Below are positions 332-60,394 of a stretch of DNA of 64,000 nucleotides, piece by piece. This DNA comes from Acidobacteriota bacterium (GTDB lineage: Bacteria; Acidobacteriota; UBA890; WLXD01): NCBI GenBank assembly GCA_963666215.2, contig CAXWPL010000005.1, positions 1,440,001-1,504,000 on the forward strand, in the 5' to 3' direction. The position numbers and the translations under genes are program-made. Position 1 is the first letter of the stretch. Each line of letters starts with the position of its first letter. The notes under the pieces were generated by a model that saw nothing but the letters and a program-made list of their open reading frames with translations, made no database searches and was not told where the DNA came from.

Positions 332-501
332 GCTTTGCTCCTGCAGTCGGAGAAGGCGGCGCCAACAGATAGGCCTATTCGCCGATTGCCTGCCAATCTA
401 TCTCAAGGCTTGGTCAAGAAGACAGATCGAGCGCCAGGACCGACTCGCGGTCTCTCACGGCTTGTCACCGAGCAGTGTCGGGGCCGGCTATTGCGTGGAA
501 A

Positions 502-2259: not shown

Positions 2260-2831
2260 CAGAGCTCCTTTTGGAAACGGATCTTGCCGCTGAAGCTGCC
2301 GGCAGCGATGAGGGTCCCATCCTCCTGCTTGAGGGGAAGGTAGGGAAGCCTCCGCGGCGCCGGGCCGGAGATTACCACGGCGCTGTTGCGCGGATCGAAC
2401 TCGGTCTCGTGACAGGAGCAGAGCATGTAGCGTGTCCCGTCGTCCCACATCGAAATATCACATCCGGTGTGGGTGCAAATCCCCGAGTAGGCAACGACTC
2501 CCTCGGCCGAGACCGCTCGCGTCTCCTCGGCGAGCTCCTCGGGATCGAAGCGAAGCACGAGTACCTGATTGAGCCGCGAGCCATCTCGCACCACTCCGGT
2601 GTTCGGGTCCTTGGCGTAGCAGGTCACCTGCTCGCCGTTCGGCTCGAGATCGGCGATTCTGACCGTCTCTCCCTGCTTGTCTCCGAAGGCGTAGATGAGG
2701 AAGTCGCCTTCTTGCGGACGCGCCTTTCGCGCCGCCTCCTCGTCCTGGGCATGCGCACGTCCGACCCCGCGCAGGCCCAGCAAGAACGCGAGGGTCGACT
2801 TGAAGAGGGTACGGCGATCTCTTGGCTTCAT
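2259..2831 (-). CDS. Tat-exported Rieske [2Fe-2S] protein, copy 1
   Basis: DRRTLFK twin-arginine motif, CTHTGC and CSCH boxes, GPAPRRL. Confidence 0.92.
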   Translation of the reverse strand: MKPRDRRTLFKSTLAFLLGLRGVGRAHAQDEEAARKARPQEGDFLIYAFGDKQGETVRIADLEPNGEQVTCYAKDPNTGVVRDGSRLNQVLVLRFDPEELAEETRAVSAEGVVAYSGICTHTGCDISMWDDGTRYMLCSCHETEFDPRNSAVVISGPAPRRLPYLPLKQEDGTLIAAGSFSGKIRFQKEL

Positions 2832-2933
2832 TGCCGAAGCTGGAGCCTATCTCACAGCGCCTGGTACCGCGCGCTTAGGCCCAGCTCATGAAGGGGTAGC
2901 TACCACGTGCACCGATTAGCGAGCGGCCGGGAG

Positions 2934-4165
2934 ACGGGTAGGAAATCGCTTTTCTGAGCATGAGGAGCATGAGGGTTTTCGGAGGCCTGGGCGAGAGCTG
3001 GAGGTCCTGGGGGTCACTTCTCGGCGGCTCGACAGCAGGATTAGAGTGCGCGGTCCTGGCGGCAGGTGGGTCGCGAGAGTGCTTGGGGGCGTGCGCGGCA
3101 GCGGGGCCCCCCAGGAGTCCCCGGAGGGGGGCCAGAGGAGTCGAGGGTCCCCCGGGAGCGTCAGGCGCTCTTTGTGTCGGCAGGGATGGGTGTCTCAGGC
3201 AGGCTCATAGACCAGCTCGGGGGCTGGCGGTGAGTGAGCGAGGGGCTCCGGCTCTTGGGGTTCCGCCTGGATTCCCGCCAACAACCTGCGGATGGAAGAG
3301 AGCTTGGTGACGAAGGCCACGATTCTCACTTCGCCGCCGCAGTACGAGCACAGCAGGGGATCGATCTCGTACACCTTGCGCAGCAGGCGAGCCCAGCTGA
3401 TGCTCCGCCGCCGGGTCCTGTTCCCTGTGCTGGCGGTGGTCTCGGCGACCTGTGACGTGTCACCGGAGTGGGGAGCGCGGCGGCCCTTGCCCCGGGCAGC
3501 GTTTGAGTACAAGCCGCGCCGAGTAGACGACCTCTCCGCTCTCAGCATCCCACTCCAGACGGTCGAGGACGAGGGGGCAACGAATCATGGTTCGGCCGAG
3601 TCGTACCGCGCCCTGGCGGTTGGCATGAGGGGCATACGCAGCGCTGTTTGCAGGAGAACGCGACGATTGCGCTCTGACCGCATCCCTCGCACTTGAGGCG
3701 GGCGAAGCCCTGTTCGAGAAGGCCGCAGTCCTAGGCATCTTCAACGGCCCAAACGCGAAGAGATGGATCAAGTTTCGAAGCCTTTGAAGATGCCTGAGCC
3801 GCGCGGCGGGAGCCGCGCTTGGCGGGAAGCAAACTAGGGCGGCCCGTGGTAGTCACCACGGGTTGCACTAGTACCAGTACACCACCCTTGCGACCACGCT
3901 GCGCAGGTAGCCGAAGGTCGGCTCGAAACGATCTTCGTAGACCTGGAGGAAGCGCTCGAAGTGGTGTGTCAAGGCGCGGTACGCCACGCTCCGCTCCGGC
4001 CGCCGCCGGCGATAGACCTGGCTGTGAGCCGCCTCTGCCATTGCCTCCCGTCGAAGACAAGAGACGGAAAGCGGCGCTCAGATCTGGCACCGATCGCACC
4101 TGATGCTCTTCCGCCCCGAGCTCGGCTTCCGCTCGAACCTCGCTGGGGAACGACCGTGGGCGGCA
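2934..4165 (-). mobile_element. Degenerate IS91/ISCR-like rolling-circle element (ori-like end at 2934; transposase remnants 3195-4041)
   Basis: End reads AAAAGCGATTTCCTACCCGT on minus strand (oriIS-like); YRRRRPE, DCGLLEQGFARLKC..SCKQRCVCPSC Zn domain, YSNAARG, WARLLRKVYEIDPLLC; internal deletions. Confidence 0.85.
3731..3871. mobile_element. CTAG-bounded insertion made of two tiny inverted-repeat elements
   Basis: AGGCATCTTCAA...TTGAAGATGCCT and ctagGGCGGCCCGTGGT-agtc-ACCACGGGTTGCActag interrupt the transposase between VVYWY and DCG. Confidence 0.6.
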
Positions 4166-4223
4166 GCTTTCCCCCGGCTGCTGCAGCTGAGTTCAACGCT
4201 GCGTGCCTTGATACGATCGGTCC

Positions 4224-4480
4224 ATGAGGGTCTCAGAAACACCCAGCGTCATTCATTCGGATCCTGAGATCCTCGGTGGCGCACCCGTTTTCCGCGGTAC
4301 GCGGGTCCCGGTCAAGAATCTCTTCGACTACCTGGAAGCTGGCAATCCACTCGAGAGGTTCCTAGATCACTTCCCACGGTTTCGCGCGAGCAGGCGTTGG
4401 CGGCTCTAGAAGAGGCAGCTGAAGGCCTTATCCGCAATGCGACTGCTTCTCGATGAATCGGTTCCTCGGCAGCCTTGCGC
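4224..4480 (+). pseudogene. DUF433 antitoxin (frameshifted) plus stub of DUF5615/PIN toxin
   Basis: IHSDPEILGGAPVFRGTRVPV; then MRLLLDESVPR at 4437, truncated. Confidence 0.75.
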
Positions 4481-4534
4481 GAGCTGGATGCTGATCGTGG
4501 AATCGGATCCGAGAGTCCGCGGTATGCTTAGGAC

Positions 4535-4777
4535 ATGGGAGCTGCGTCTGATACCTGGCAGGACTTCATTGCTGTCGATCCAGCGATATGCCACGGACGG
4601 GCCTGCATACGGGGTACCCGCGTCATGGTGTCTGTGATCCTAGACAACTTGGCTGCGGGACTATCGGCGGAAGAGATCCGAGCCAGCTACCCGACGGTGA
4701 GCAAGCAGGCTCTTCAGGCCGTTATGGGCTATGCGGCCGACCTGGCACGGGAGCGCATCGTCGACATCTCGTCGTAG
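4535..4777 (+). CDS. DUF433 family antitoxin
   Basis: DPAICHGRACIRGTRVMVSVILDNLAAG...YP. Confidence 0.85.
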   Translation: MGAASDTWQDFIAVDPAICHGRACIRGTRVMVSVILDNLAAGLSAEEIRASYPTVSKQALQAVMGYAADLARERIVDISS

Positions 4778-4786
4778 AGGCCCGTG

Positions 4787-4892
4787 GTGAGGTTCAAGGT
4801 CGACGAGAACCTCCCCGTCGAGATTGCTCAGAGTCTCGGTGAATCCGGCTATGACGCTCAGACGGTCCCGGACGAGGGACTTTGCGGCGCAG
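4787..4892 (+). pseudogene. Truncated DUF5615 (PIN-like) toxin
   Basis: GTG start, RFKVDENLPVEIAQSL...QTVPDEGLCGA then break. Confidence 0.7.
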
Positions 4893-4924
4893 ACGGACAG
4901 ACGACGGCCCAAGCACGACTGTGA

Positions 4925-5245
4925 GTGAAACGCTCGCACAGATTCAAGCCCTGGTACAGCGCGCTGAAGTCCCGTGTTTCCCTACACGGGTATGACGAGC
5001 TCGCCGACGACGAGATCAGCGTGCGAGACATCGTCAGCGGGGTAGGGGACGCCGTCCTGATCGAGGACTACCCGGATTACCTGAAAGGCCCATGCTGCCT
5101 CGTGTTGCAGCGAGATGGAGCAGGGCGACCGATTCATGTAGTCTGGGGTATCAGGGCGGGTCGAAACTCTCCGGCCGTCGTTGTCACGGCATATCGACCC
5201 GATCCGAAGAAGTGGGAGGAGTCGTGGCAAAAGAGGCGGACATGA
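4925..5245 (+). CDS. DUF4258 family toxin-like protein (5' end possibly damaged)
   Basis: [28 protein letters not shown]. Confidence 0.75.
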
Positions 5246-17490: not shown

Positions 17491-17539
17491 CATCTCGAGG
17501 GGATAGACGGGGCGCGCGGGGCCGGCTATTGCGTGGAAA

Positions 17540-19276
17540 TCAGTCCGCCTCGGGCAGAGCGAAGACCCAGAGCACCCCGCCGAAGGGGATGTAGGTCTTG
17601 GTACCGAGAAATCGATCGATGCCGCGCATCCCACGCTGGGCATCGACTCCCCAGCCCGATTGGACGGCGACGTACTGTGTACCGTCGATCTCGTAGGACG
17701 AGGGCACTCCGGTAATCCCCGAGTTGGTGCGCTGCCGCCAGAGGATGTCGCCCGTGGTGGCGTCGAAAGCACGGAAGTATCGGTCGCCGGTACCGCCCAT
17801 GAATACGAGACCCCCTCCCGTGGTGAGTACCGGCCCCCACAGCTGGAGCTCGAACTCCGTGGTCCACACCTTCTTGCCGGCATTGAGATCCCAGGCCTGG
17901 AGCTCTCCGATGTGATCCCAGCCCTCGCGCAGAGAAGATCTCCCGCCCGACCCGCTCGGCAGACGGGGGCAGCAGCCGGTGAAAACGCGGCCGGGGCGGT
18001 ACTCGACCTCCTCGCCTTCCAAGGTGGAACACGTGTTCTCGTTGGCGGGAATGTAGAGCAGGCCCGTCTTCGGGTTGTAGGCCGCGGGCGGCCAGTTCTT
18101 GCCGCCAGCCACGCCCGGACAGGTGAGCGCCGATTTGCCGGTACCGGGCGTGTGCTCGGGGTCGTAAGAGGGGCGCCCGGTCTTCGCGTCGATCGAAGCG
18201 AACGCATTCTGGTAGACGTAGGCAGTTGCATCGATGAAGCCGATGGACTTCTTCTTGCGCTCGAGGATCCAGAGGTAGCCGTTGCGGCCGGGGTGAACGA
18301 GCGCCTTACGTGTGCGACCGCCACGCTTCACATCCAGCAGCATTGGGGGGTCGACCTCGTCCCAGTCCCAGGAGCCGTTCCAGTGATATTGGTGATGGCC
18401 TCGCAGCTTGCCCGAGTCGGCATCGAGAGCGATGACCGAGGTGGCGTAGAGGTTGTCGCCCGGACGGGCGTCGCCCATCCAGGGACCTCCGTTGCCGGTG
18501 CCCCAGTAGGTCAGGTTTAGCTTCGGATCATAGGTGCCGGTGACCCAGACCGGGGCACCTCCGGTGCGCCAGGTCTCGCCCGGCCAGCTCTTGTGCCCGC
18601 GCTCGCCGGGGCCGGGAATGGTGTAGGTCTTCCACACTTCGTCCCCGGACTCGGCGTCGAGGGCGGTGACGAATCCGCGGATGCCCCACTCTCCGCCAGA
18701 AACGCCGACCATGATCTTGCCGTTGATCGCCAGCGGCGCCATGGTCATGTAGTAGCCGACGGAGTAGTCCTCCACCGCCTTTTCCCACACCACCTCACCG
18801 GTCGTCGCTTCCAGTGCGACGACGAAGGCATCGACTGTCGCGACATAGACCTTGTCTTGCCACAGCGCCACGCCCCGGTTGGTGGGGTGCATCTGCTGCA
18901 GGTCTTCGGGCAGGTCGCGCACGTAGCGCCACAGTGAATTGCCGGTACGCGCGTCGAGAGCGATGATGCGGCTGCCCGGAGTGGTGATGAACATGATGCC
19001 GTCGTTGACGATGGGCGGTGACTGGTGTCCCTCGTTCGCGCTGGTGGAGAAGGTCCACAGCGGAGCGAGCGAAGCTACGTTGGAGGTGTCGATCTGCTCC
19101 AGGGGGCTGTAGCCCCAACCGTCGTAGGTGCGGCGATACATGAGCCAGTTCTCGGGCTCGGGCTCGAGCAGCCTCTCTTGGGTGACCGGACGGTAGGCCG
19201 GTGCATCCTGGGCGGCGAGGGCCGCCGGGACGACCAGGGTGGCAATGAGCACGAGGATTCTGCTGGAACGAAGCAT
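17540..19276 (-). CDS. PQQ-dependent dehydrogenase, copy 2
   Basis: Near-identical to 502-2259; loop FTGCCPRLPSG. Confidence 0.92.
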   Translation of the reverse strand: MLRSSRILVLIATLVVPAALAAQDAPAYRPVTQERLLEPEPENWLMYRRTYDGWGYSPLEQIDTSNVASLAPLWTFSTSANEGHQSPPIVNDGIMFITTPGSRIIALDARTGNSLWRYVRDLPEDLQQMHPTNRGVALWQDKVYVATVDAFVVALEATTGEVVWEKAVEDYSVGYYMTMAPLAINGKIMVGVSGGEWGIRGFVTALDAESGDEVWKTYTIPGPGERGHKSWPGETWRTGGAPVWVTGTYDPKLNLTYWGTGNGGPWMGDARPGDNLYATSVIALDADSGKLRGHHQYHWNGSWDWDEVDPPMLLDVKRGGRTRKALVHPGRNGYLWILERKKKSIGFIDATAYVYQNAFASIDAKTGRPSYDPEHTPGTGKSALTCPGVAGGKNWPPAAYNPKTGLLYIPANENTCSTLEGEEVEYRPGRVFTGCCPRLPSGSGGRSSLREGWDHIGELQAWDLNAGKKVWTTEFELQLWGPVLTTGGGLVFMGGTGDRYFRAFDATTGDILWRQRTNSGITGVPSSYEIDGTQYVAVQSGWGVDAQRGMRGIDRFLGTKTYIPFGGVLWVFALPEAD

Positions 19277-19848
19277 CAGAGCTCCTTTTGGAAACGGATC
19301 TTGCCGCTGAAGCTGCCGGCAGCGATGAGGGTCCCATCCTCCTGCTTGAGGGGAAGGTAGGGAAGCCTCCGCGGCGCCGGGCCGGAGATTACCACAGCGC
19401 TGTTGCGCGGATCGAACTCGGTCTCGTGACAGGAGCAGAGCATGTAGCGTGTCCCGTCGTCCCACATCGAAATATCACATCCGGTGTGGGTGCAAATCCC
19501 CGAGTAGGCAACGACTCCCTCGGCCGAGACCGCTCGCGTCTCCTCGGCGAGCTCTTCGGGATCGAAGCGAAGCACGAGTACCTGATTGAGCCGCGAGCCA
19601 TCTCGCACCACTCCGCTGTTCGGGTCCTTGGCGTAGCAGGTCACCTGCTCGCCGTTCGGCTCGAGATCGGCGATTCTGACCGTCTCTCCCTGCTTGTCTC
19701 CGAAGGCGTAGACGAGGAAGTCGCCTTCTTGCGGACGCGCCTTTCGCGCCGCCTCCTCGTCCTGGGCATGCGCACGTCCGACCCCGCGCAGGCCCAGCAA
19801 GAACGCGAGCGTCGACTTGAAGAGGGTACGGCGATCTCTCGGCTTCAT
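19276..19848 (-). CDS. Tat-exported Rieske protein, copy 2
   Basis: Two amino-acid differences from copy 1 (I/V, T/S). Confidence 0.92.
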   Translation of the reverse strand: MKPRDRRTLFKSTLAFLLGLRGVGRAHAQDEEAARKARPQEGDFLVYAFGDKQGETVRIADLEPNGEQVTCYAKDPNSGVVRDGSRLNQVLVLRFDPEELAEETRAVSAEGVVAYSGICTHTGCDISMWDDGTRYMLCSCHETEFDPRNSAVVISGPAPRRLPYLPLKQEDGTLIAAGSFSGKIRFQKEL

Positions 19849-19869
19849 TGCAGAAGCTGGAGCCTATCT

Positions 19870-20304
19870 CACAGCGCGTGCGGTGACGCCTACTCTCTGC
19901 AGCGCCTCGACGAAGGGCGCCGCCTGCCGGGCCACGTCGGCTCGACCGTCGGAGTGAACGACGAGGAAGGGAGGCGTCGTGCCGTCGGGGCCCAAGTGAT
20001 GGATAGGTGAAACGGCGTTCCAGGCGGCGGGGTCCTCGCCGAAGACCCGCCGCATCATCTCGCCAAAAGTGCTCGCCGGATCAGTCTCTTCGATGATTCG
20101 CTCTACGTTGTAGGGGCCGGTCGCGAGAGAGATGACCCCGGCGATGGTTGCCGGGGCGATATTCTGCTCGGTGAGGAATGCCGTGTTGGTGCCGACGACC
20201 GAGACCAGATGTGCGCCGGACCAGCCCATGAGGAAGATGCGCGATGGGTCGCCGCCGTAGTCAGCGGCATTATCGTGAAGCCACCGCGTAGCTCGGGCAA
20301 TGTC
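19870..20304 (-). pseudogene. Alpha/beta hydrolase (esterase) internal fragment
   Basis: WLHDNAADYGGDPSRIFLMGWS.GAHL, SPIHHL..PPFLVVH. Confidence 0.65.
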
Positions 20305-24900: not shown

Positions 24901-24909
24901 GCACTAACC

Positions 24910-25334
24910 CTTCAGGAGCGCGCTTACTCCTCTCCGATCTGGTTGATACCGCGATAAGGAGCGGCTCGAAACGATCTTCGTAGACCTGGGGAGGAAGCGC
25001 TCGAAGTGGTGTGTCAAGGCGCGGTACGCCACGCTCCGCTCCGGCCGCCGCCGGCGATAGACCTGGCTGTGAGCCGCCTCTGCCATTGCCTCCCGTCGAA
25101 GACAAGAGACGGAAAGCGGCGCTCAGATCTGGCACCGATCGCACCTAATGCTCTTCCGCCCCGAGCTCGGCTTCCGCTCGAACCTCGCTGGGGAACGACC
25201 GTGGGCGGTAGCTTTCCCCCGGCTGCTGCAGCTGAGTTCAACGCTGCGTGCCTTGATACGATCGGTCCATGAGGGTCTCAGGAACACCCAGCGTCATTCA
25301 TTCGGATCCTGAGATCCTCGGTGGCGCACCCGTT
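24910..25334. repeat. DUF3604 3' tip + IS91 5' stub + DUF433 start
   Basis: 24910-24961 matches 54218-54269; 24962-25334 matches 3919-4291 with a few differences. Confidence 0.85.
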
Positions 25335-25369
25335 TTGTTGGCGACCGCGAGTGGTTCGACTACGAGATC

Positions 25370-49006: not shown

Positions 49007-49987
49007 CTACCGCACCGGTCCAGGATTGCCAGCGATGAAGTCCACGATGATGCGAGCCAACTGCGCGCCGTGGGATTCCTGAATGAAGTGGCCGGCGCCT
49101 TCGACGATCAGGTGTCCCTGGTCCTGAGCCCCTGGAACCTCGCGCTGGAACTTCTCGTCCTGACCGCCTGTGACGGGATCACTGTCTCCGAAGGCCGTCA
49201 AGAACGGCTTATCCCACTTCTTGAACACCTCCCAGGCGGCGAGGTTGGCCTCGCGAGCCGGGTCGTCCAAAGTAACCGGAACCCGCTGCGGCATGATGAG
49301 AGGCCCCGCTTTGTAGCGGGGATCGGGGAAAGGCGCATCGTACGCTGCCTGCAAGGAAGGATCGCCGTTGCTCCGCGCCAGCATCATGCCGGTCGGGATG
49401 TCGCCGCGGTCGATCATGCCCTGATTCACCCCTTTCCAGTTCATGAAGGCCTCGGAGAGCTGGTCCTCGCCGGTCGGCAGGGCGGTATTGGAGATCACCA
49501 CCCGAGCGAAGCGATCCGCTCTCTCGGCCACCACGCGTAGGCCGATCAGACCACCCCAGTCCTGGCCGAAGAAGGTGACGCCGCGTAGGTCGAGCGCCTC
49601 GACCAGCTGCTTCATGACGTCGACGTGGAACTCGTAGGTGTGGACCTCCATCTCGGCCGGCTTGTCGGAGCGTCCAAAGCCGACCAGGTCCGGCACGATC
49701 ACCCGATGACCCGCGGCCGTCAAGACCGGAATCATCTTGCGAAACAGGTAGGCCCAGGTCGGCTCGCCGTGGATCAGCAGAATCGCCTCACCGTCCCTCG
49801 GTCCCTCGTCCAGGTAGTGGACTCTGTAGCCTTCGATCTCCTGATAGCGCGGCTCGAAGGCGAAACCGGGAAGATTCTGAAAACGATCGTCCGATGTCCG
49901 AAAGACTCCCGGCCGGATTTCCTCACCACCGACAGCCGCGGCCGCCAGCGCGACCGATGCGAACACACCGACAATGTTGCTATTCAT
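49007..49987 (-). CDS. Haloalkane dehalogenase
   Basis: HGEPTW, GFGRSDKP, QDWGG, YDAPFP, D.V, GHFIQE. Confidence 0.9.
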   Translation of the reverse strand: MNSNIVGVFASVALAAAAVGGEEIRPGVFRTSDDRFQNLPGFAFEPRYQEIEGYRVHYLDEGPRDGEAILLIHGEPTWAYLFRKMIPVLTAAGHRVIVPDLVGFGRSDKPAEMEVHTYEFHVDVMKQLVEALDLRGVTFFGQDWGGLIGLRVVAERADRFARVVISNTALPTGEDQLSEAFMNWKGVNQGMIDRGDIPTGMMLARSNGDPSLQAAYDAPFPDPRYKAGPLIMPQRVPVTLDDPAREANLAAWEVFKKWDKPFLTAFGDSDPVTGGQDEKFQREVPGAQDQGHLIVEGAGHFIQESHGAQLARIIVDFIAGNPGPVR

Positions 49988-50169
49988 CTGATTTGCCCTC
50001 CAACGAGCGCCCTTGAATAGGCGCAAGTCTATCGCTCGCCGCCAGCAGCCCGGTTCGCGGTGTCGTCTTCCACCCAGAAAGACGACAAAACCGCTCAGCG
50101 AGGACCTATGCAGTTCCAGCTATTGGTGTCGTGGTCCGCCAGTAAAGGCGACACGCAGGCTCACCACTT

Positions 50170-50806: not shown

Positions 50807-52096
50807 TCATGCGATGGCGCGATCCTCAGCGATGAGAAACGCCGTAGCGAGCGAAAGTGCGATCGCTGAGATGATCGCGAAAATCGTGAGCAACGCCGGC
50901 CAACCCTGGTCCCGGATCACCGCGCCGGCCAATGGCGCAAAGATCATGGTGGCCCCGTAGCCGCAGGCATCGATCAGCCCGATCAGCACACCGGATCGCG
51001 CACGTCCGAACTGAATCGAGAACACACTCATGGGGATGTAGTACGCGGGCGATACCGCGAGCCCGAAGAGGAATGTCGCCGCCACGGCAACGCCCAATGC
51101 GGCGGCTGCGTCCAGCTCGAGTTCTGGCAAAAAACGAATCAAGACAATGGCCGCCAGCCCGACCGCCAACAAACCGCCCAGGACACGCACCCGACCGGCG
51201 GGGCTCAGCCTGTCATACAGCAGCCCCCCAGCCAGAACAGAAATGAAGGATCCGGCCGGAAAGGCCGACGAAGCCATGCCCGCTGCTCCGGATTCGATGG
51301 CGAAGTTCTGCTTGAAATACAGAGGTAGGAAGCTGAGGAACTCCATCTGGATCGTCATGGCCATCATGGCCAGGCAGATCAACTGGACGCGTCGGCTCTT
51401 CGCGAAGTGAATCAGCGTCGCCCCGAGCGTCTCCTGCCAATCCAACAGCCCCAACCGCACTTCTTCGCTCTCCACGGGTCCCGGGTTGGGCGACGCCAGA
51501 CCCCTTTGGCCAGGGCTGTCCTTCAGATAGATGAAGTCGAGCCCCACGATCAGCGCTGTGATCATTCCGGATACGTAGAAGAGCCAGCGCCAGGGCAGCA
51601 CCACCAGGAGTGCGCCCAGCAGGAAGCTGGAGATCACGCTGCTGGCCCGGGAGCTGGTTGCGATGACGCCCCATATCCGCCCGTGCCTGGCCGCGTCGAA
51701 CCACGCTCCGATGAGCTTTGCCATGGCGGGCCAGGCGCCCGCCTTCGTCAGCTGGGCCAGGAAGTTCATCAGCATGAACAGGAGGTGCGCCGACGAGGCC
51801 CCGAAGATCACCGTTGCGGCGCCGGTCAGCGACGTTGCGAGTAGGAAGAGCCGACGCCCACCCAGGGCGTCCGCGATTGCGCCGTTGAGTAACTTGCCTG
51901 CAAGTGCGCCCGCGGCCCCCCAACCCAAGAGGGCACCGAAGCCGGCCACATCCAAGCCGAGGGCGGGGTCGTCGATCATCTCAGGAGATGCAATCGAAAC
52001 AGCGGTCCGGCACAGGACCAGCCCCGCGTAGCCGCCGTACATGCAGAGGACGGTGGTCAGCTCCCAGCGCAGTCGATCCCGGGCAAGTTCTGGCAT
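50807..52096 (-). CDS. MFS transporter, GlpT/UhpC-like
   Basis: GKLLNGAIADALGGRR, AWPAMAKLIGAWF..GRIWG; many TM segments; start could be 52126. Confidence 0.82.
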   Translation of the reverse strand: MPELARDRLRWELTTVLCMYGGYAGLVLCRTAVSIASPEMIDDPALGLDVAGFGALLGWGAAGALAGKLLNGAIADALGGRRLFLLATSLTGAATVIFGASSAHLLFMLMNFLAQLTKAGAWPAMAKLIGAWFDAARHGRIWGVIATSSRASSVISSFLLGALLVVLPWRWLFYVSGMITALIVGLDFIYLKDSPGQRGLASPNPGPVESEEVRLGLLDWQETLGATLIHFAKSRRVQLICLAMMAMTIQMEFLSFLPLYFKQNFAIESGAAGMASSAFPAGSFISVLAGGLLYDRLSPAGRVRVLGGLLAVGLAAIVLIRFLPELELDAAAALGVAVAATFLFGLAVSPAYYIPMSVFSIQFGRARSGVLIGLIDACGYGATMIFAPLAGAVIRDQGWPALLTIFAIISAIALSLATAFLIAEDRAIA

Positions 52097-52146
52097 CCGG
52101 CTGCGACCGTAGCATGTGGCCTGCATCCGTTTGGAGTGGCGAGAAC

Positions 52147-54491
52147 ACGGGTAGGAAATCGCCTTTCTGAGCATGAGGAGCATGAGGGTTTTCGGAGGCC
52201 TGGGCGAGAGCTGGAGGTCCTGGGGGTGACTTCTCGGCGGCTCGACAGCGGGATTAGAGTGCGCGGGCCTGGCGGCAGGTGGGTCGCGAGAGTGCTTGGG
52301 GGCGTGCGCGGCAGCGGGGCCCCCAGGAGTCCCCGGAGGGGGGCCTTTGCTTCACTCTGTCTGTTGTTTTCGTTACCCTGGAAGCTCGCAGTAGGTGGTC
52401 GCGCCCCCTACGGGAGAAAACGATGATGAGAAAAGTCCATCGCATCGCCGCGCTGACGGTCTGCGTATCGTGTGCCACATACGGCGCCGCAAGCGGGCAG
52501 CGCAATGCTTATTTCGGCGATCTGCACATCCATACGCGATATTCCCTCGACGCCTTCGTTTTCGGCACCCGCGCTTCACCCGACGTCGCCTACAGCTATG
52601 CGCGCGGGGAGGCGATCACACATCCCGCCGGCTACCAGATCCAGCTCGATCGCGCGCTCGATTTCTACGCCGTCACCGACCACGGCGCCTATCTGGGCCT
52701 GTGGTCGGCGATGACCGACCCTGCTCATCCGCTCCACGACGCTCCCGAAACCCGTCGCTTCTTCGATCCGAAGACCATCAACGAGAGATACGCGGCCTTC
52801 CGGGCCGGCTCCTCGTTTCTCCGGGACCATCCCGACCCAGAGGCCTCACGTTCGGCCTGGCGGGAGATCATCGCCTCGGCGGAGCGCAACTACGAGCCGG
52901 GCAAGCTCACCACCTTCGTCGCCTATGAGTTCACGTCGTCGTACCCCGAGGGGGCCAATCAACACCGCAACGTCATCTTTCGCGGCGCGAATGCGCCCGA
53001 GCTGCCCTTCACCCGACTCGACTCGCCGAACCCCGAGGATCTCTGGGACTGGCTCGATGGTTTGCGAGCACAGGGCATCGAGGCGCTCGCCATCCCCCAC
53101 AACTCGAACCAGAGCGATGGCTACAAGTTCGCGCGCCAGAAGATGTCCGGGGAGCCCTTCGACGCGGCATACGCCCGACTGCGGATGCGCAATGAACCCT
53201 TGGTCGAGATGACACAGATCAAGGGCACCTCGGAGACACATCCGCTACTTTCCCCCAACGACGAGTGGGCCGACTTCGAGATCGAGCTTCTCACCCCGGC
53301 CGAATCGAGCCTCGACAAACTCCGTGGAAGCTATGTGCGCGACGCCTACCTTGCCGGTCTCGGCTTCGAGGAAAGGGAGGGCTTCAACCCCTACCGGTTC
53401 GGGGTGATCGGTGCGAGCGACAGCCATAATGCGGGAGCCGCTTACCAGGAGTCGTCCTACTTCTCCAAGCTCGGGATCATCGATGGGATGCCCGAGGGGC
53501 GGGGATCAGTGCCCCCGGGAGGAGCTACCAGCTGGAAGGACGCAGAGCGAGCCCCCGGATCCGACGCGACGACCTCAGGGCCGCTACCGGCAACGGAGAG
53601 GTTCGCGACCTGGGGCGCTTCAGGTCTGGCGGGCGTATGGGCCGAGGAGAACACGCGCGAATCGATCTACGACGCCTTCCGCCGCAAAGAGACCTTCGCC
53701 ACCACCGGACCACGGATCCGTGTGCGTTTCTTCGGCAGCTACGGCTTCGGCGACGATCCGCTAGAAGACGAGGATCTCGTGACGAAGGCCTACGAGCACG
53801 GGGTACCGATGGGCGCCGACCTCCCTGCGCGGCGGCGTGGCGTGCCGCAATTCCTGATCTGGGCGATGCAGGACCCCGAGTCCGCCAAGCTTGACCGTGT
53901 TCAAGTGATCAAGGGCTGGATCGAGGACGGCGAGCCACAGGAGCGGGTCTACGATGTCGCCTGCTCCGACGGTCTGGAGGTCGACTCCGAGACCCACCGC
54001 TGTCCCGATAACGGCGCTCAGGTGGACCTCACAGACTGCACCGTCAGCGCCGACGTCGGTTCAACGCAGCTCAAGACACTCTGGACCGATCCCGAGTTCG
54101 ACCGCCGTCAACGTGCCTTCTATTACCTGCGAGCCCTGGAGAATCCGACCTGCCGCTGGACCACCTGGGACGCCATCCGGGCGGGCACGCCGCCCCGGCC
54201 CGGTCCTGCGGCAACGCTTCAGGAGCGCGCCTACTCATCTGCGATCTGGTTGATACCGCGATAAGGAGTGGCCCGCAACTCGCCAGCTCTCCGAGCAGCT
54301 TGCGGTCGTCACGCTCCGCTCCGGCCGCCGCCGGCGATAGGCCTGGCTGTGAGCCGCCTCTGCCATTGCCTCCCGTCGAAGACAAGAGACGGAAAGCGGC
54401 GCTCAGATCTGGCACCGATCGCACCTGATGCTCTTCCGCCCCGAGCTCGGCTTCCGCTCGAACCTCGCCGGGGAGCGACCGTGGGCGGCAG
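52147..54491 (-). mobile_element. IS91-like derivative enclosing a DUF3604 gene
   Basis: 52147-52344 matches 2934-3131 (ori end); 54310-54491 matches 3985-4166 (transposase start and leader). Confidence 0.75.
52423..54264 (+). CDS. DUF3604 metallohydrolase 3
   Basis: GDLHIHT, TDH, GASDSH, QERAYSS. Confidence 0.88.
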   Translation: MMRKVHRIAALTVCVSCATYGAASGQRNAYFGDLHIHTRYSLDAFVFGTRASPDVAYSYARGEAITHPAGYQIQLDRALDFYAVTDHGAYLGLWSAMTDPAHPLHDAPETRRFFDPKTINERYAAFRAGSSFLRDHPDPEASRSAWREIIASAERNYEPGKLTTFVAYEFTSSYPEGANQHRNVIFRGANAPELPFTRLDSPNPEDLWDWLDGLRAQGIEALAIPHNSNQSDGYKFARQKMSGEPFDAAYARLRMRNEPLVEMTQIKGTSETHPLLSPNDEWADFEIELLTPAESSLDKLRGSYVRDAYLAGLGFEEREGFNPYRFGVIGASDSHNAGAAYQESSYFSKLGIIDGMPEGRGSVPPGGATSWKDAERAPGSDATTSGPLPATERFATWGASGLAGVWAEENTRESIYDAFRRKETFATTGPRIRVRFFGSYGFGDDPLEDEDLVTKAYEHGVPMGADLPARRRGVPQFLIWAMQDPESAKLDRVQVIKGWIEDGEPQERVYDVACSDGLEVDSETHRCPDNGAQVDLTDCTVSADVGSTQLKTLWTDPEFDRRQRAFYYLRALENPTCRWTTWDAIRAGTPPRPGPAATLQERAYSSAIWLIPR

Positions 54492-54603
54492 GTCGGTGAC
54501 CGGTTGCGAGGCGTGACGAGCGCTCCGCCGACGAGTACGCCGGGGGCAGGGGACGGGGATAGGGGTCTTATGTCAACGGGGGTGTCTAATGCCGCCTTTA
54601 GTC

Positions 54604-55425
54604 TTACTCCTTGGGTTGAGCGTATGAGAAGGGGAACAGTGGCCCGAGTTCAATTGCGTCGGTTCGGAAATGGGCGATGGCTTGGTACTCGTCACTTGCG
54701 ATCATTTCTAGGAAGGTCTCGATGGACGGGTAGCTGACGAGTAGCAGGCGATCGATTTCTTCGTCGGAGATGACGGGGCCGACACCTTTTAGGACGTAGA
54801 CGGTAGCGCCGCCGCGCTTCTTGACCCCCGTGCTCGCGGGGGGGCCGTATTTTGTAAAGTATTGTTCTCGACCGGCGTCGCCGGCGAAGCGCAGCAGGTT
54901 AAGGATGTAGACCGTGTCAGCGCTCGGAGGCGGCGAAAGGACCGGCATCGGGAAGTTCCTCGGCGGAGGGGAAGGCATCTCGCCGGAAAAGGCGTAGACG
55001 AATGACGCGTCGACGGAGGCCAAGCGATTCGGAAGCGCGCCTTCGGTGCTGCCGGCCATGTCCATGACGGCCTGCATGGAGGGGTATTTGCGGAATGTCA
55101 CGCGGTCCCAGCTGGTGTGATCGACCGCGCCCAGAGTGTGAAGGTGGGGAACGGGCTCGGTGCCGTTCAGTTTGGTCGCGTCGACCTTGCGCGCGGTGCC
55201 ACGGAACACGACCGCGCCGCCGAGGCTCTTGAGTTTCTCTTCGACGATGCCGTCGTAGATGGCGTATTTCTCTTCGCCGCCAGGCTTGAACTTGACGAGG
55301 TCCATGACGACGACGGGGCCTTCTACGTTGGCTCTGAGGAGGTCGGCTATGCCGCCGACGTCCTGGGCGGAGGCGGTGGTGTTAACTAACAGAATGGAAA
55401 GAATCGTTGCGATAATATTCGTCAT
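54604..55425 (-). CDS. Exported protein with tandem DUF1330-like domains
   Basis: Signal peptide; VVMDLVKF..WDRV..YPS and YILNLLRF..YPS repeats. Confidence 0.65.
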   Translation of the reverse strand: MTNIIATILSILLVNTTASAQDVGGIADLLRANVEGPVVVMDLVKFKPGGEEKYAIYDGIVEEKLKSLGGAVVFRGTARKVDATKLNGTEPVPHLHTLGAVDHTSWDRVTFRKYPSMQAVMDMAGSTEGALPNRLASVDASFVYAFSGEMPSPPPRNFPMPVLSPPPSADTVYILNLLRFAGDAGREQYFTKYGPPASTGVKKRGGATVYVLKGVGPVISDEEIDRLLLVSYPSIETFLEMIASDEYQAIAHFRTDAIELGPLFPFSYAQPKE

Positions 55426-55480
55426 CGGCAATTCTCCAACACTAAAGGAACTAAAAGGGGTTAATCAGGCAAGGCAAAAC

Positions 55481-56386
55481 TCAAATTACGCCACCCAGCG
55501 ATGACTCGGGCAGGGTCGGCACGGTGGCCGGGCTGCAGATCCGACTCATGGCCGCCGCCTTGTGGCGATAGATGTCGCGGAACTCGGGGGTCAATTCTAT
55601 CTCCATAAAGTCGTGCAAGCTGGGGTAGCGCACGATGTTCAGGCGCCACCAGCGGACGTCGGGAGGGTTGAGGGCGTCGGGCACGTCGGCGCCGGCCAGG
55701 AGCTCGCGGTCCAGCGTCGCCAGCTCCCCGCCGCCCCGGTAGCGTCCGTAGGCGTCGAGGCCGGACGAGCCGGGATACTCGCCGTCGGGGTAGTACGCCT
55801 CCTCGCGGAGCTCGATGAGGTTCACGACATGAATTGCCGTGTCCGCCGCATCGTCGGAGGTCACCTGCCGCGGCGCTGCGGGTGGCTGCCGTGGCACGGC
55901 CACCACCACCTGCCCGGCCGCCACCGCGGCCTCACGATGCACGAGGGCCGCCTCCTGCGCTGCGCTGCGCTCCACCGTTTCCCACGCTCGCCAGCTCGGG
56001 TAGTGCTTCAACACCACGATGTCCCAGTCGCAGTAGGGCTTGATGGGCCAGTCCTCTGGGCGACCGGGTATCGTCCGGCGTAGGACGTTGTTCACGAGCA
56101 GGGTCGTCACGCCGGCCTCTTCCTCGACCGCACGCAGGCCCGCGAGATAGGCATGGTAGGCGGCTGTGGGAGTCTTGAGACCGAACGCTGTGCCGTCCGG
56201 GTAGGCGACAGCTCGCCGCAGCTTCACTTCCTCCAGGCGGTGGAAGGCGCCGTCGCCGTGACTCTCGGCCAGACGCGCCCCCAGCTCGGTCCGGGGGGCG
56301 TCCTGCGCCACCACCGCGCCACCGGCGAACGCCAGGTAGAAGACTAGGCTCAGACCTGAGCGAGGCACCATCGTACGATCGGTCAT
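55481..56386 (-). CDS. Exported protein with tandem DUF1330-like domains
   Basis: A.YPDG, WDIV..YPS, HREAA and VVNLI..YPDG..RYPS..HKAAA. Confidence 0.6.
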   Translation of the reverse strand: MTDRTMVPRSGLSLVFYLAFAGGAVVAQDAPRTELGARLAESHGDGAFHRLEEVKLRRAVAYPDGTAFGLKTPTAAYHAYLAGLRAVEEEAGVTTLLVNNVLRRTIPGRPEDWPIKPYCDWDIVVLKHYPSWRAWETVERSAAQEAALVHREAAVAAGQVVVAVPRQPPAAPRQVTSDDAADTAIHVVNLIELREEAYYPDGEYPGSSGLDAYGRYRGGGELATLDRELLAGADVPDALNPPDVRWWRLNIVRYPSLHDFMEIELTPEFRDIYRHKAAAMSRICSPATVPTLPESSLGGVI

Positions 56387-56455
56387 CGCGACCTCCTTTC
56401 GTTGGCACATAAATCGTGGATGAATACCTACAGACCACTAAATACGGTATGTTTA

Positions 56456-56711: not shown

Positions 56712-56741
56712 ACGGATAGGAAATCGCTCTTCTGAGCATGA
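56712..56741 (-). mobile_element. Isolated IS91-like ori end
   Basis: ACGGATAGGAAATCGCTCTTCTGAGCATGA matches 2934 and 52147. Confidence 0.7.
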
Positions 56742-57287
56742 TGCGATCCGGTAGTGACAAAGAAAATGGAGTTTGAATTATGCCTCGAGTAGTAGAGACT
56801 ATTCCTGATGCATTGGCTGCAGAGGCCGAGGCCGCCCGGGCTTGGTTCTCCAAGGAAAGCGGAAGTGATTTCAAGTTGACCGGGATTGTCGATCCCCCCG
56901 TTCGCTTCGCTCACGAAGGTGCCAGCCTCTTGTTGAGGACCCGCGCGGCGGACCACCCGGGAGCAGATCCATCTGAATGGAGGGCAGAATGTTCGGCTGG
57001 CACCCTGGCAGCTGAAGGCTGCCGGGCCCGCGCCTCTTTGTTGGGGTGCTCTCGCAGGATGGGGGACCGGGGTGCCCGGCGGCTGGTCGAGTCACGGAAA
57101 CGCGGGTGCTCTTCTTCGGGCGCGGCCGGTCAGAGCCATCTCAATCGAGATTCGCCAGACTTTGAGGTCAAAAGAGAATCTAAAAGAATACGGGGAAATT
57201 AGAATTTCAACTACCGCTGCCCATACACAGATATCCAGCACGGTACCTCTCAAACCTCTTTATATCTTATTCGCGCCCATTACTAGC

Positions 57288-57980: not shown

Positions 57981-58451
57981 GATGAAAATTTAAAACTAAA
58001 AGTTGAAATGATAAGCCAAAATCCTCTGCGTCTCAGCGCCTCTGCGCGAGGCTTAATCAACTCCTCGTTCCGCCAGCTCAGCATCAATGAGATCGAGGAT
58101 CAAATGTTGGTCACGCACCAAGGCGTCCATATTGTTGGCGACTAAATGTGACCAGGAACGTTTAAACCGAGATTTGCCATTTGGTTCTCTCCTCCAGTTC
58201 GAGACCCAGGATTGGAGGCCATACTACCGGACTCGCCGCCGTGTCTTGGACGGGGCCGCCCCCAGCGAGTCTCCCAAAGCTGTGGGGGGCGAATACCCGT
58301 CACCTTCCGTAGCGGTCGGTAGAGTCGGTGAACCGCCCCGACTTCACCGGAGACTCCAAACCTTGAGAGGATTGGAGTCATGTCAAGAAGCAGATTCTCA
58401 CCAGAAGTCCGGGACCGTGCTGTACGCCTGGTCTTTGACCAGGAAGTACAG

Positions 58452-59902
58452 GGCGGATTCAACTGGTCGTCGCAACATCTCGTGATGGAGGTGTTTCGAT
58501 GGGAGTTGGCAAGTGTCAGGGTGCGATTCGAGCGATGCGTGGCCAGATGCGGTCACCTGGCCGGCCCTCGACAGCGCGGCGCGAGGACCGGATCCGGTTC
58601 TGGGAGACGATCGCTCGTGGGGCGTCCAGCGAGGACGCCGCAACAGAGGCTGGGGTGTCGCCGGCTGTCGGGTCGAGATGGTTCAGGCAAGCTGGTGGAA
58701 TGCGACCTATCTCGTTGGCTCCGGTGTCGGGGCGTTATCTGTCGTTCGCCGAGCGTGAAGAGATCGCCATCCTTCACGCTCAGCATGTTGGGGTACGTGA
58801 GATCGCTCGCCGCCTGGGTCGTTCACCGTCGACGATTTCGCGGGAGCTGCGCCGCAACGCGGCGACTCGCAGCCGTGCCGTAACTTATCGGGCCACGACT
58901 GCGCAGTGGCACGCGGAGCGGCGCGCCAGCCGTCCGAAGGTCTCCAAGCTTGCCGCGAACGATGCCTTGCGGAGTACGTGCAGAACCGCCTCGCCGGCGT
59001 GATCGCAAGGCCTGACGGGGAGCTGGTGCCGGGTCCGGATGTGCGTTGGATCGGCCGTCGGCACGGCCGTCGCCAGGATCGGCGTTGGGCGAAATCCTGG
59101 AGTCCGGAGCAGATCTCGAACCGGCTTCGGATTGATTTCCCCCATAATGAGTCGATGCGGATCTCTCACGAGGCGATCTACCAAGCGCTCTACATCCAAG
59201 GTCGAGGAGCCCTCAAACGCGAGCTCGTCGCGTGCCTGCGAACCGGGCGAGCGCTACGAGTGCCGCATGCGCGAACCCGGGGGAGAGGCAAGAAATTTGT
59301 AACTCCGGAGATCATGATCAGCGAACGCCCCGCCGAAGCCGGCGACAGGGCCGTGCCGGGTCACTGGGAAGGCGACCTGATCGTCGGGCTCGAGAGCTCA
59401 GCGATCGGGACCCTCGTCGAACGCACTACGCGGTTCACGATGCTGCTGCACCTGCCCCGCATGGAAGGGCACGGGACCGAATCGAGGGTGAAGAACGGGC
59501 CGGCCCTCGCCGGGCACGGCGCCGAAGCCGTCCGTGACGCGATCGCGGTGTCAATCACCACGCTGCCCGAGCAGCTCCGCCGGTCCTTGACCTGGGACCA
59601 GGGCGCCGAGATGGCTCAACACGCTCAACTCCGCGTCGATACCGGCCTCGCGATCTACTTCTGCGACCCGCACAGCCCCTGGCAGCGGGGCACCAACGAG
59701 AACACCAACGGACTACTACGCCAGTACTTCCCGAAGGGCACCGACCTTGTCAGATACTCCTGCGACGACCTCGCCGCGGTCGCGCTCGCACTCAACGGCC
59801 GACCCCGCAAGACCCTCGGCTGGAGAACCCCTGCCGAAGTCTTCGATGAGCTTGTACACTCTGCTCACCAAGGCAACGCTGCGACGACTCCTTGAACCCA
59901 AG
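58452..59902 (+). mobile_element. IS30-family element; transposase frameshifted near 58965
   Basis: IRs GGCGGATTCAA..GTCGTCGCA / TGCGACGAC..TTGAACCCAAG; WSPEQIS, GHWEGD, TWDQG.E, QRGTNEN.NG. Confidence 0.9.
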
Positions 59903-60316
59903 CAGTACGCCTCGAAGGCTTACCAGGATCGGCTGGCTGAGCTGCGGTTTCGCTGCAGCATGTCCGGCGTCGGAAATTGTTATGACAATGCGGTCTTGGA
60001 GAGCTTCTTCGACAGTCTCAAGACCGAGGTCTGGGACCGACCCTTCGAGACTCGTCAGCGAGCTCACGACGAAGCGGTTTCTTACCTCGAAGTGTTCTAC
60101 AACCTGAGACGCCAGCATTCGACGCTCGGATTCCTGAGCCCCGAGGCCTTCGAAGGGGCAGCGTGAACTCACGCGCGACCGGCGGTCGGATCCGAAGGGA
60201 GGCTGCGCTCCCCGAACCTCGCACAGCCTCGTCCGAAGCTGACTACCCGAACTGATGCAGAATAGGAACTGCCCCGATGGGGCTTAACTTGGTGTCCACG
60301 AAACCGTGACCGCTCA
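59903..60316 (+). mobile_element. 3' part of a second IS3-family element
   Basis: QYAS..SMSGVGNCYDNAVLESFF..YN.RRQHSTLG; end GTGTCCACGAAACCGTGACCGCTCA. Confidence 0.82.
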
Positions 60317-60394
60317 GAACCCCTGCCGAAGTCTTCGATGAGTTTGTACACTCTGCTCACCAAGGCAACGTTGCGACGACCCCTTGAACCCAAG
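60317..60394 (+). repeat. Second IS30 right end
   Basis: Matches 59825-59902 with few substitutions. Confidence 0.88.

Follow-up and report, generated by a model that had tools for sequence, protein, structure and literature searches.

ISCR elements are IS91-like rolling-circle elements that are known for carrying neighboring genes. The cargo of an ISCR element lies outside the element, past a termination end that was missed, and the transposase is intact. For IS801, a member of the IS91 family, ori-end fragments of 229, 360 and 679 nt were attributed to one-ended transposition, and the same report ascribes most genomic IS801 fragments to reorganization (Bardaji et al., 2011; PMC3189936). Among the titles and abstracts listed in a search for non-autonomous rolling-circle elements of the IS91 family, none describes an element with internal cargo. 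The locus described here lies in the window, i.e., the whole stretch of 64,000 nt that was analyzed (positions 1440001–1504000 of contig C5 of the source genome, G000), where the two ends of an IS91-like element stand on either side of a complete gene of the DUF3604 family. Unlike in ISCR elements, the gene is found between the ends and the transposase is gone. The initial annotation had interpreted this arrangement as a non-autonomous, Helitron-like vehicle. The reading that we favor, held with about as much confidence as doubt, is that two independent, dead fragments of an IS91-family element came to lie beside a resident DUF3604 gene and were trimmed by short-homology deletions.

The genome G000 is a metagenome-assembled genome (MAG) of five contigs that is 91.7% complete, and contig C5 is 1.61 Mb long. 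Three loci of the window are referred to by letter: A (2934–4166), B (24906–25336) and C (52147–54541), C being the composite under study. A self-BLAST of the window bore out that element ends bracket the full DUF3604 gene in native order, with 97.5% identity over 200 bp between 52147–52345 and 2934–3133, and 97.4% identity over 191 bp between 54302–54491 and 3976–4166. Many features of C were recognized by comparison with G041, a 6.8-Mb MAG labelled Thermoanaerobaculia, which was found by a protein-seeded scan. The parts of C are as follows:

52147–52345, plus strand: left (ori-side) end fragment of the IS91-family element, 199 bp, non-coding throughout
52346–52419, plus strand: native leader of the DUF3604 gene, by homology to the leader of a G041 paralog
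52420–54264, plus strand: intact DUF3604 gene, 614 aa, matching PF12228 positions 3–590 of 591 (E = 9e-219)
54265–54273, plus strand: native 3' flank of the DUF3604 gene, 9 bp, GGAGTGGCC, by homology to the flank of the G041 paralog past its stop codon
54274–54309, minus strand: 36-bp internal piece of the transposase gene, approximately residues 145–156, 100% identical to G041:C1:3974051-3974086
54302–54366, minus strand: transposase codons 1–21, MAEAAHSQAYRRRRPERSV, 97.4% identical to 3976–4041
54367–54491, plus strand: region upstream of the transposase start (ter side), common to 4/4 right-end copies
54492–54541, plus strand: 50 bp past 54491, 100% identical to a single G041 copy (at 5.216 Mb)

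The left fragment corresponds in A to the region past the stop codon of the transposase gene. Its outer start, ACGGGTAGG, is sharp and is common to eight other copies whose outer flanks are unrelated. On the inner side the element end terminates in ...GGGGGGCC at position 52345, and the leader of the gene itself comes next. Positions 52341–52553 are 78% identical to the leader of the G041 paralog, which has no element end before it; the homologous leader in G041 begins at the equivalent of 52341 and has GGGCC there. Since GGGCC is common to the element end and the native leader, the left join of C falls within a 5-bp shared motif. The DUF3604 protein begins with a hydrophobic stretch resembling a signal peptide.

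The right flank of C is scarred, with two deletion scars within the transposase remnants. In a G041 copy at 3.974 Mb, the 36-bp stretch still occupies its original position, with the Y2 region on one side and the Zn-finger region on the other. In C, the frame was checked and the same piece is out of frame with codons 1–21, which identifies the junction between them as a deletion scar; GGTCGT / GGTACGC similarity is visible at this scar. While the left terminus of C is sharp, the right one may lie at 54491 or at 54541. The former is the point where A and its two sisters diverge from C. The 50 bp that follow occur once in G000 and are either the true element end or co-inherited flank; hence the right terminus is one or the other of these positions, each with just two kinds of context behind it.

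We infer the order of events and the origin from two copies out of the homologies, the scars, the census of copies and the finding that no intact transposase of this type was recovered. Accepting this, the DUF3604 gene would be a resident chromosomal paralog that still has its native leader along with 9 bp of native 3' flank. The upstream fragment would be a 199-bp ori end, one of nine graded ori-end fragments (approximately 30–380 bp) with one sharp terminus. The downstream remnant would derive from a second copy that originally started just past the gene, as the copies after two sister DUF3604 genes still do. Short-homology deletions would have taken the left end of this second copy along with most of its transposase, leaving the 36-bp internal piece, codons 1–21, the upstream region and the right end. 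A deletion from the flank of the gene into a downstream copy would give exactly the right side of C.

The repeats had been annotated as the end regions of an IS91-like element, and this was supported by matches to two Pfam families. PF14319 (N-terminal Zn-binding domain) matches window positions 3620–3751 (E = 4.5e-10), and PF04986 (Y2 HUH domain) matches a sister fragment at C5 1423300–1423830 (E = 3.6e-16), in which HPHIH is visible. Both domains are present as pieces alone, with no complete copy among the G000 loci. Positions 2934–4165 had been treated as the element itself; locus A does serve as the reference copy, but it is itself a relic:

2934–4166, plus strand: reference relic A, comprising left end, minus-strand transposase remnant and right end (self-BLAST, Pfam, alignment with L097)

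Transposase residues were counted along an intact 422-aa relative on a metagenome contig (L097), which is 36–63% identical to the transposase of the element over matched stretches and was used solely as a ruler. By this measure, the remnant in A retains only residues 2–52, 48–94 and 316–407 of approximately 422 aa, and residues from about 95 to 315 are missing. The remnant is broken by a 135-bp insert (window 3735–3869) that neither of the G041 copies spanning this position contains. A segment of the insert, 3792–3860, is 85.5% identical to G041:C1:6349708-6349775, next to three DUF3604 genes in tandem array. Relative to the transposase gene, the left piece (2934 to about 3194) comes after the stop codon and, by analogy with IS91 and IS801, is the ori side; the right piece, upstream of the start codon, is the ter side.

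No terminal inverted repeats were present, as evidenced by the 8/30 and 2/30 matches between the left 30 nt and the reverse complement of either candidate right end. Nor was a target-site duplication seen at C, where the left flank is GCGAGAAC and the right flank is GTCGGTGA or GGGGGCAG, depending on the terminus. Both ends folded no better than shuffled sequence (z −0.58 to +1.16), and a 10-bp palindrome, CCGAGCTCGG, lies approximately 45 bp inside A 4166. The lack of inverted repeats and of target duplication is shared with IS801/IS91 (PMC3189936), and so are two other traits: a fragment series with a common terminus downstream of the transposase gene and varying inner lengths, and the occasional carriage of DNA past the other end, here a DUF433 region after three right ends. 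Unlike in IS801, there is no full-length source copy, the transposase stands on a distant branch, 0/7 inner ends have a shared tetranucleotide, and GAAC occurs at only 1/13 outer left junctions (nine in G000, three in G041 and one in G242), that one being 52146. The other 12 junctions read ggag, gcgg, tacg, gtgg, atcg, gcca, gggg, aagg, agag, gggt, cgcg and gggc; an ori-adjacent tetranucleotide of the IS801 type (GAAC, CAAG, GGAC, CGAC) is not a rule at the outer left junctions of this element. The best match to the transposase in a plasmid collection, at 38.5% identity, was annotated simply as "transposase" and gave no help on the ends. The element is an undescribed, apparently extinct lineage of the IS91 family, and the phenomenon itself is of a known kind.

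Within G000, the left terminus (ACGGGTAGGAAATCGC...) is present nine times and the core of the right end four times. All 13 ends are on the plus strand within C5 1384863–1496743 (P = 0.0002 under random orientation). The nine left ends have one sharp boundary and nine unrelated outer flanks; the lengths of their inner parts are approximately 30, 139, 200, 213, 263, 300, 353 and 380 bp, plus A. The shortest lies 2.2 kb to the right of C and was found also via G041:

56712–56743, plus strand: ninth copy of the left terminus, of which only about 30 bp are left (3 mismatches in 32; none expected by chance)

Every copy in G000 is truncated or internally deleted, and no complete transposase of this type was found in this genome, where the pieces pooled over all loci cover residues 2–94 and 164–407. 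The copies are 95–99% identical in DNA; for example, 24962–25336 is 98.7% identical to 3919–4291 in the window self-BLAST. Past the same point, the right ends of A, B and C5 1393442 continue into a DUF433 gene region, whereas C and one G041 copy continue into different DNA. Two DUF433 genes and a DUF4258 gene stand to the right of A (window 4167–5245). Pieces of this region recur at C5 1393443–1393768, 1413006–1413156 and 1415422–1415945, each time on the right side of element pieces and in the same orientation; the region may represent read-through cargo or else a passenger module that belongs to a longer form of the element.

What lies between paired ends elsewhere was answered by a second left-right pair at C5 1390868–1393442 (2575 bp), which encloses a dehydrogenase gene and a TerC tail fragment. 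Its layout is as follows: (i) 139 bp of left end, (ii) the TerC tail fragment, (iii) the gene for a secreted-looking 2-hydroxyacid dehydrogenase, (iv) approximately 0.6 kb of unassigned DNA, and (v) transposase residues 1 to about 60 followed by the right end. An early impression of an IS110-like tail inside this pair was dropped, there being no Pfam match. The C5 region as a whole is a mosaic of segmental repeats of 0.1–2.6 kb with 87–99.8% identity. A 2.4-kb duplication of 96% identity with genes for a PQQ-dependent dehydrogenase and a Rieske protein (window 479–2860 and 17517–19877), abuts the left end of A with one of its copies. The left end of the relic in G242 (see below) is likewise abutted by a frame with a PQQ-dehydrogenase-like C-terminus, judged by eye.

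The DUF3604 genes have a history of their own. All seven full genes of G000 lie in one 130-kb island (C5 1382777–1512387), six of them on the plus strand; PF12228 matches number 7 in G000, 12 in G242, 13 in G332 and 61 in G041 (tandem arrays included). The G000 paralogs are 45–76% identical in protein and 54–76% in DNA, and the protein encoded in C is at most 57% identical to any other. In DNA, the gene of C has no G000 match above 85% except the 67-bp tip in B (89.6%) and an 80-bp stretch in the paralog D2 (90%), and its best G041 match is 81–82%. The divergence among the paralogs greatly exceeds that among the element copies, and they are therefore far older than the activity of the element, which did not build the DUF3604 family here. 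This contradicts the proposal of the initial annotation that the element may help expand DUF3604 genes: paralogs with 45–76% protein identity stand against element copies with 95–99% DNA identity. On the favored reading, C is inert today; it did not create the family.

Relic pieces were nevertheless found within approximately 400 bp of DUF3604 genes in three genomes, the cases in G000 being C, B, D1 and D2. The paralog D1 (C5 1382777–1384570) has a left end 293 bp downstream. D2 (1410709–1412418) comes after a left-end relic (1409614–1410082) and is itself followed, 230 bp on, by a different left end (1412648); since D2 lies between two separate relics, independent copies on either side of a DUF3604 gene do exist in this genome. 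In G041, a right-end piece (3965124–3965297) lies inverted, approximately 400 bp after a D5-type gene. In G332, 235 bp separate the 5' end of a DUF3604 gene from the sole relic (L120 1501–1685 = G332:C1:1802629–1802813), a transposase tail that is 99% identical to A, and a rough arithmetic estimate puts the chance of this relic standing beside one of the 13 DUF3604 matches at approximately 0.6%. The association suggests co-residence in exchangeable islands; mobilization is not implied. Two D5-type paralogs of G041 are followed, about 22 bp on, by a homolog of the 309-aa gene at window 55481–56410, which means that the right-end relic of G000 occupies what is elsewhere a short convergent spacer.

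DNA searches beyond G000 covered 40 relatives, the whole class (26 genomes) and 401 genomes sampled from the phylum, with two candidates scored per genome in the last set. Relatedness was judged by gyrB in place of rpoB, which was found in G000 neither with the family model nor by tblastn with the G041 gene. The assembly thus misses at least one core region, where an intact element could also hide. There are five relic loci in G041, with 96–99% DNA identity. Any piece of the element was present in 3/401 genomes of the phylum sample, from which G242 and G332 each contributed one relic with 98–100% identity over the aligned pieces; these two relics have the same inner junction. Apart from them, the searches of relatives gave just short matches of 70–81% in G013, G014 and G020, and two of these weak loci (L003, L004) were without a transposase. 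The left 32-mer had 0 matches in the metagenome collection, and a protein scan of metagenomes gave 19 loci (best identity 66%), none with the ends of the element. A continuation of the sulfatase gene past the G041 copy at 5.216 Mb was not found.

An intact transposase of this type was looked for in G000, G041, G242 and G332, and only relics were seen. The intact IS91 transposases of 399 and 414 aa in G041 are of another lineage, with no DNA match from the element to those loci; a fragment at C5 1328190–1328891 and the classical IS91-type copies in G041 belong to the same Pfam family (PF04986) and to a different lineage. GyrB of G000 and G041 is 51% identical. Relics that are 96–100% identical in genomes as distant as these two point to recent exchange between distant bacteria. 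Other genes of the window recur in G041 at 92–93% DNA identity without synteny (e.g., 55489–56399 and 49021–50001), which suggests recent exchange between distant lineages.

Locus B had been annotated as a second remnant of the same junction between DUF3604 and transposase:

24906–25208, plus strand: remnant B, comprising the DUF3604 3' tip, transposase codons 1 to about 41 and the right end (self-BLAST); the flank shared with A runs on to 25336

B is cut on its left by IS6, as the initial annotation had it, and the reading frame there matches the IS6-type domain DDE_Tnp_IS240. The DUF3604-side point is indeed the same as in C, with 24906–24972 being 89.6% identical over 67 bp to 54213–54279, the 3' tip of the gene; the position in the transposase differs, since B enters it at codon ~41 (A 3919). 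The motif on which the comparison had been based, TAAGGAG-TGGCC, proved to be native 3' flank, with a homologous counterpart next to a G041 paralog, and the pair TAAGGAG-CGGCTCGAAAC versus TAAGGAG-TGGCCCGCAAC consists of this flank and then two different transposase positions. Judging from the sequences, a single short-homology deletion between AAGGAGTGGC and AAGGTCGGC may have turned a C-like ancestor into B. In that case, DUF3604 and transposase would have been fused before either locus arose, and the fusion would have been copied once. The tip of the gene differs between B and C at 7/67 positions and the right end at 6/188 (Fisher P = 0.045), and the two loci carry different DNA past A 4166; both observations speak against the copying of B and C as a unit.

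Comparison with the genome and with relatives showed that the ends recur, with nine left and four right ends in G000, whereas the complete unit occurs once in G000 and not at all in G041. An empty target site could not be recognized, as no orthologous locus was reached via the MFS and DUF1330 neighbors of C (listed below): the MFS neighbor has no close homolog in the 40 relatives (best protein identity 45%), and G041 has no syntenic locus. None of the joints listed from public contigs was a circular one, in which the right end would lead back into the left. Non-autonomous Helitrons lack a transposase and enclose host DNA between short 5' and 3' ends that are conserved, and C resembles them in this layout, an analogy drawn in the initial annotation; unlike C, Helitron families are recognized by many copies with the same ends at different sites, whereas C is one copy with no partner, with scars in its end region and an unsettled 3' terminus. 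The proposed vehicle finds no support in a single-copy locus with a scarred right part and no intact transposase, and we consider it quite improbable that C ever moved as a unit.

The account by two relics draws on several lines of evidence: nine left and four right ends, every one from a truncated or internally deleted copy; separate copies beside D1 and D2; the scarred right part of C, with short homologies at the scar (GGTCGT / GGTACGC) and at the left junction (GGGCC); the single-copy state of C and the lack of an intact transposase; the age mismatch between paralogs and element; the short convergent spacer in G041; and the precedent of IS801 (PMC3189936). Several observations weigh against it. 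The order and orientation of the fragments match one element exactly, and the flanks of the gene are merely 74 bp and 9 bp long. There is a second left-right pair of 2575 bp (C5 1390868–1393442), and in a simulation two or more of three right ends had a left end within 2.6 kb upstream with P = 0.07. The graded left ends are reminiscent of the one-ended transposition products of IS801, but the inner ends of the left fragments share no tetranucleotide, and 0/7 match either candidate right terminus, which does not support an IS801-type origin of the 199-bp piece. In-silico removal of six fragments and three whole units restored no long frame; no fragment is therefore provable as a simple insertion. 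Finally, B and C break at the same DUF3604-side point, which fits an older single chimera that was later copied. Such a chimera, which corresponds to the structure of the initial annotation, would have arisen from one IS91-family copy in which everything between a point 200 bp into the left end and transposase residue ~156 was swapped for a DUF3604 gene segment, by way of short homologies and either two template switches or two illegitimate recombinations. The product would be a true ori-cargo-ter unit, movable in principle by a transposase in trans, and the IS801 transposase works in trans (PMC3189936). Both ends stand in native order and orientation around exactly one gene, the left junction has the GGGCC microhomology, the second pair likewise encloses foreign DNA (the TerC tail fragment and the 2-hydroxyacid dehydrogenase gene), ends are paired more commonly than under random placement, and derivation of B from a C-like ancestor would mean that the right half of the chimera once existed in two copies. 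We nevertheless regard this origin as the less likely one. There is a single complete copy and no autonomous partner in four genomes; the differences of B in tip and right end run in the wrong direction for a copy of the whole unit, unless right ends were homogenized, and the DNA past A 4166 is not the same in B and C. The right terminus is undefined, with an extra scar within the right part, and gene fragments form a patchwork inside the second pair, as decay would give.

Homologous recombination among dispersed relics, with repeats of 190–380 bp and 95–99% identity as crossover sites, might have shuffled segments so that the pieces came with neighboring DNA, and adjacency would then be uninformative on transposition. 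The mosaic of segmental repeats (0.1–2.6 kb, 87–99.8% identity) and the two different continuations of the right ends (A, B and C5 1393442 versus C and the G041 copy) fit this explanation, and PMC3189936 proposes that IS801 mainly aids genome flexibility by providing regions of homology for recombination. It is nonetheless unlikely here: the inner junctions of both fragments fall at homologies of a few bases and not inside long shared stretches, and no reciprocal products were identified in G000. We also think it improbable, to a similar degree, that an IS91-family lineage acts like non-autonomous Helitrons, its ori and ter ends persisting around swapped-in host genes (DUF3604 at C, the dehydrogenase at C5 1390868–1393442) and the chimeras and end fragments being mobilized in trans by a master copy that resides at some other place in the community (a plasmid or a different species). 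This reading would explain why only relics are seen, why they are 96–100% identical in genomes as distant as 51% GyrB identity, and why they adjoin DUF3604 genes in three lineages.

That the repeats caused a false join in the MAG is barely credible, even though the assembly is 91.7% complete, no rpoB was found in it and the repeats occur in 4–9 copies. The contig is 1.61 Mb long and one of five. Logan contigs from three runs of two studies are identical to it over 51700–52193, bridging 52146/52147 by 47 letters, and identical contigs that begin 30 letters inside the repeat (52316; 54512), one letter short of the bridging rule used for the contig check, enter unique DNA without difference. This check listed 32 of 701 pieces, 54165–54310 not being among the pieces listed. 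Half or more of the sampled words were contained in 5/14 listed public runs. Logan contigs break at repeats and are neutral on the junction between DUF3604 and the right end.

The neighbors of C were assigned by open reading frame and domain search:

50807–52123, minus strand: MFS transporter gene, left neighbor of C
54604–55431, minus strand: DUF1330-like gene, right neighbor of C, convergent with the DUF3604 gene

The DNA of the window is GC-rich, and spurious long reading frames are frequent as a result. The longest MFS reading frame would begin within the element end (52183), and we place the start of the gene, tentatively, at 52123 or 52096. A promoter and terminator scan of 51950–54700 gave 0 promoter-like sites and two terminator-like matches versus 1.4 expected. 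Farther to the right, a 1.9-kb repeat (window 58451–60394) has three copies on C5 with 98–99.8% identity and encodes a 329-aa DDE-type transposase, which may be IS30-like; this repeat is probably a currently active insertion sequence.

If the DUF3604 gene of C were internal cargo of a mobilizable unit of the IS91 type, bacteria would have a counterpart to Helitron gene capture, and such a unit would provide a spreading route for a large uncharacterized enzyme family that is greatly expanded in these genomes. Instead, the evidence favors a dead insertion sequence that decayed and was rearranged in the ordinary way. The locus has cautionary value in that paired ends in native order alone do not make a vehicle. 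At the same time, the presence of near-identical, transposase-less fragments in very distant bacteria implies recent exchange between them and an unseen active source.

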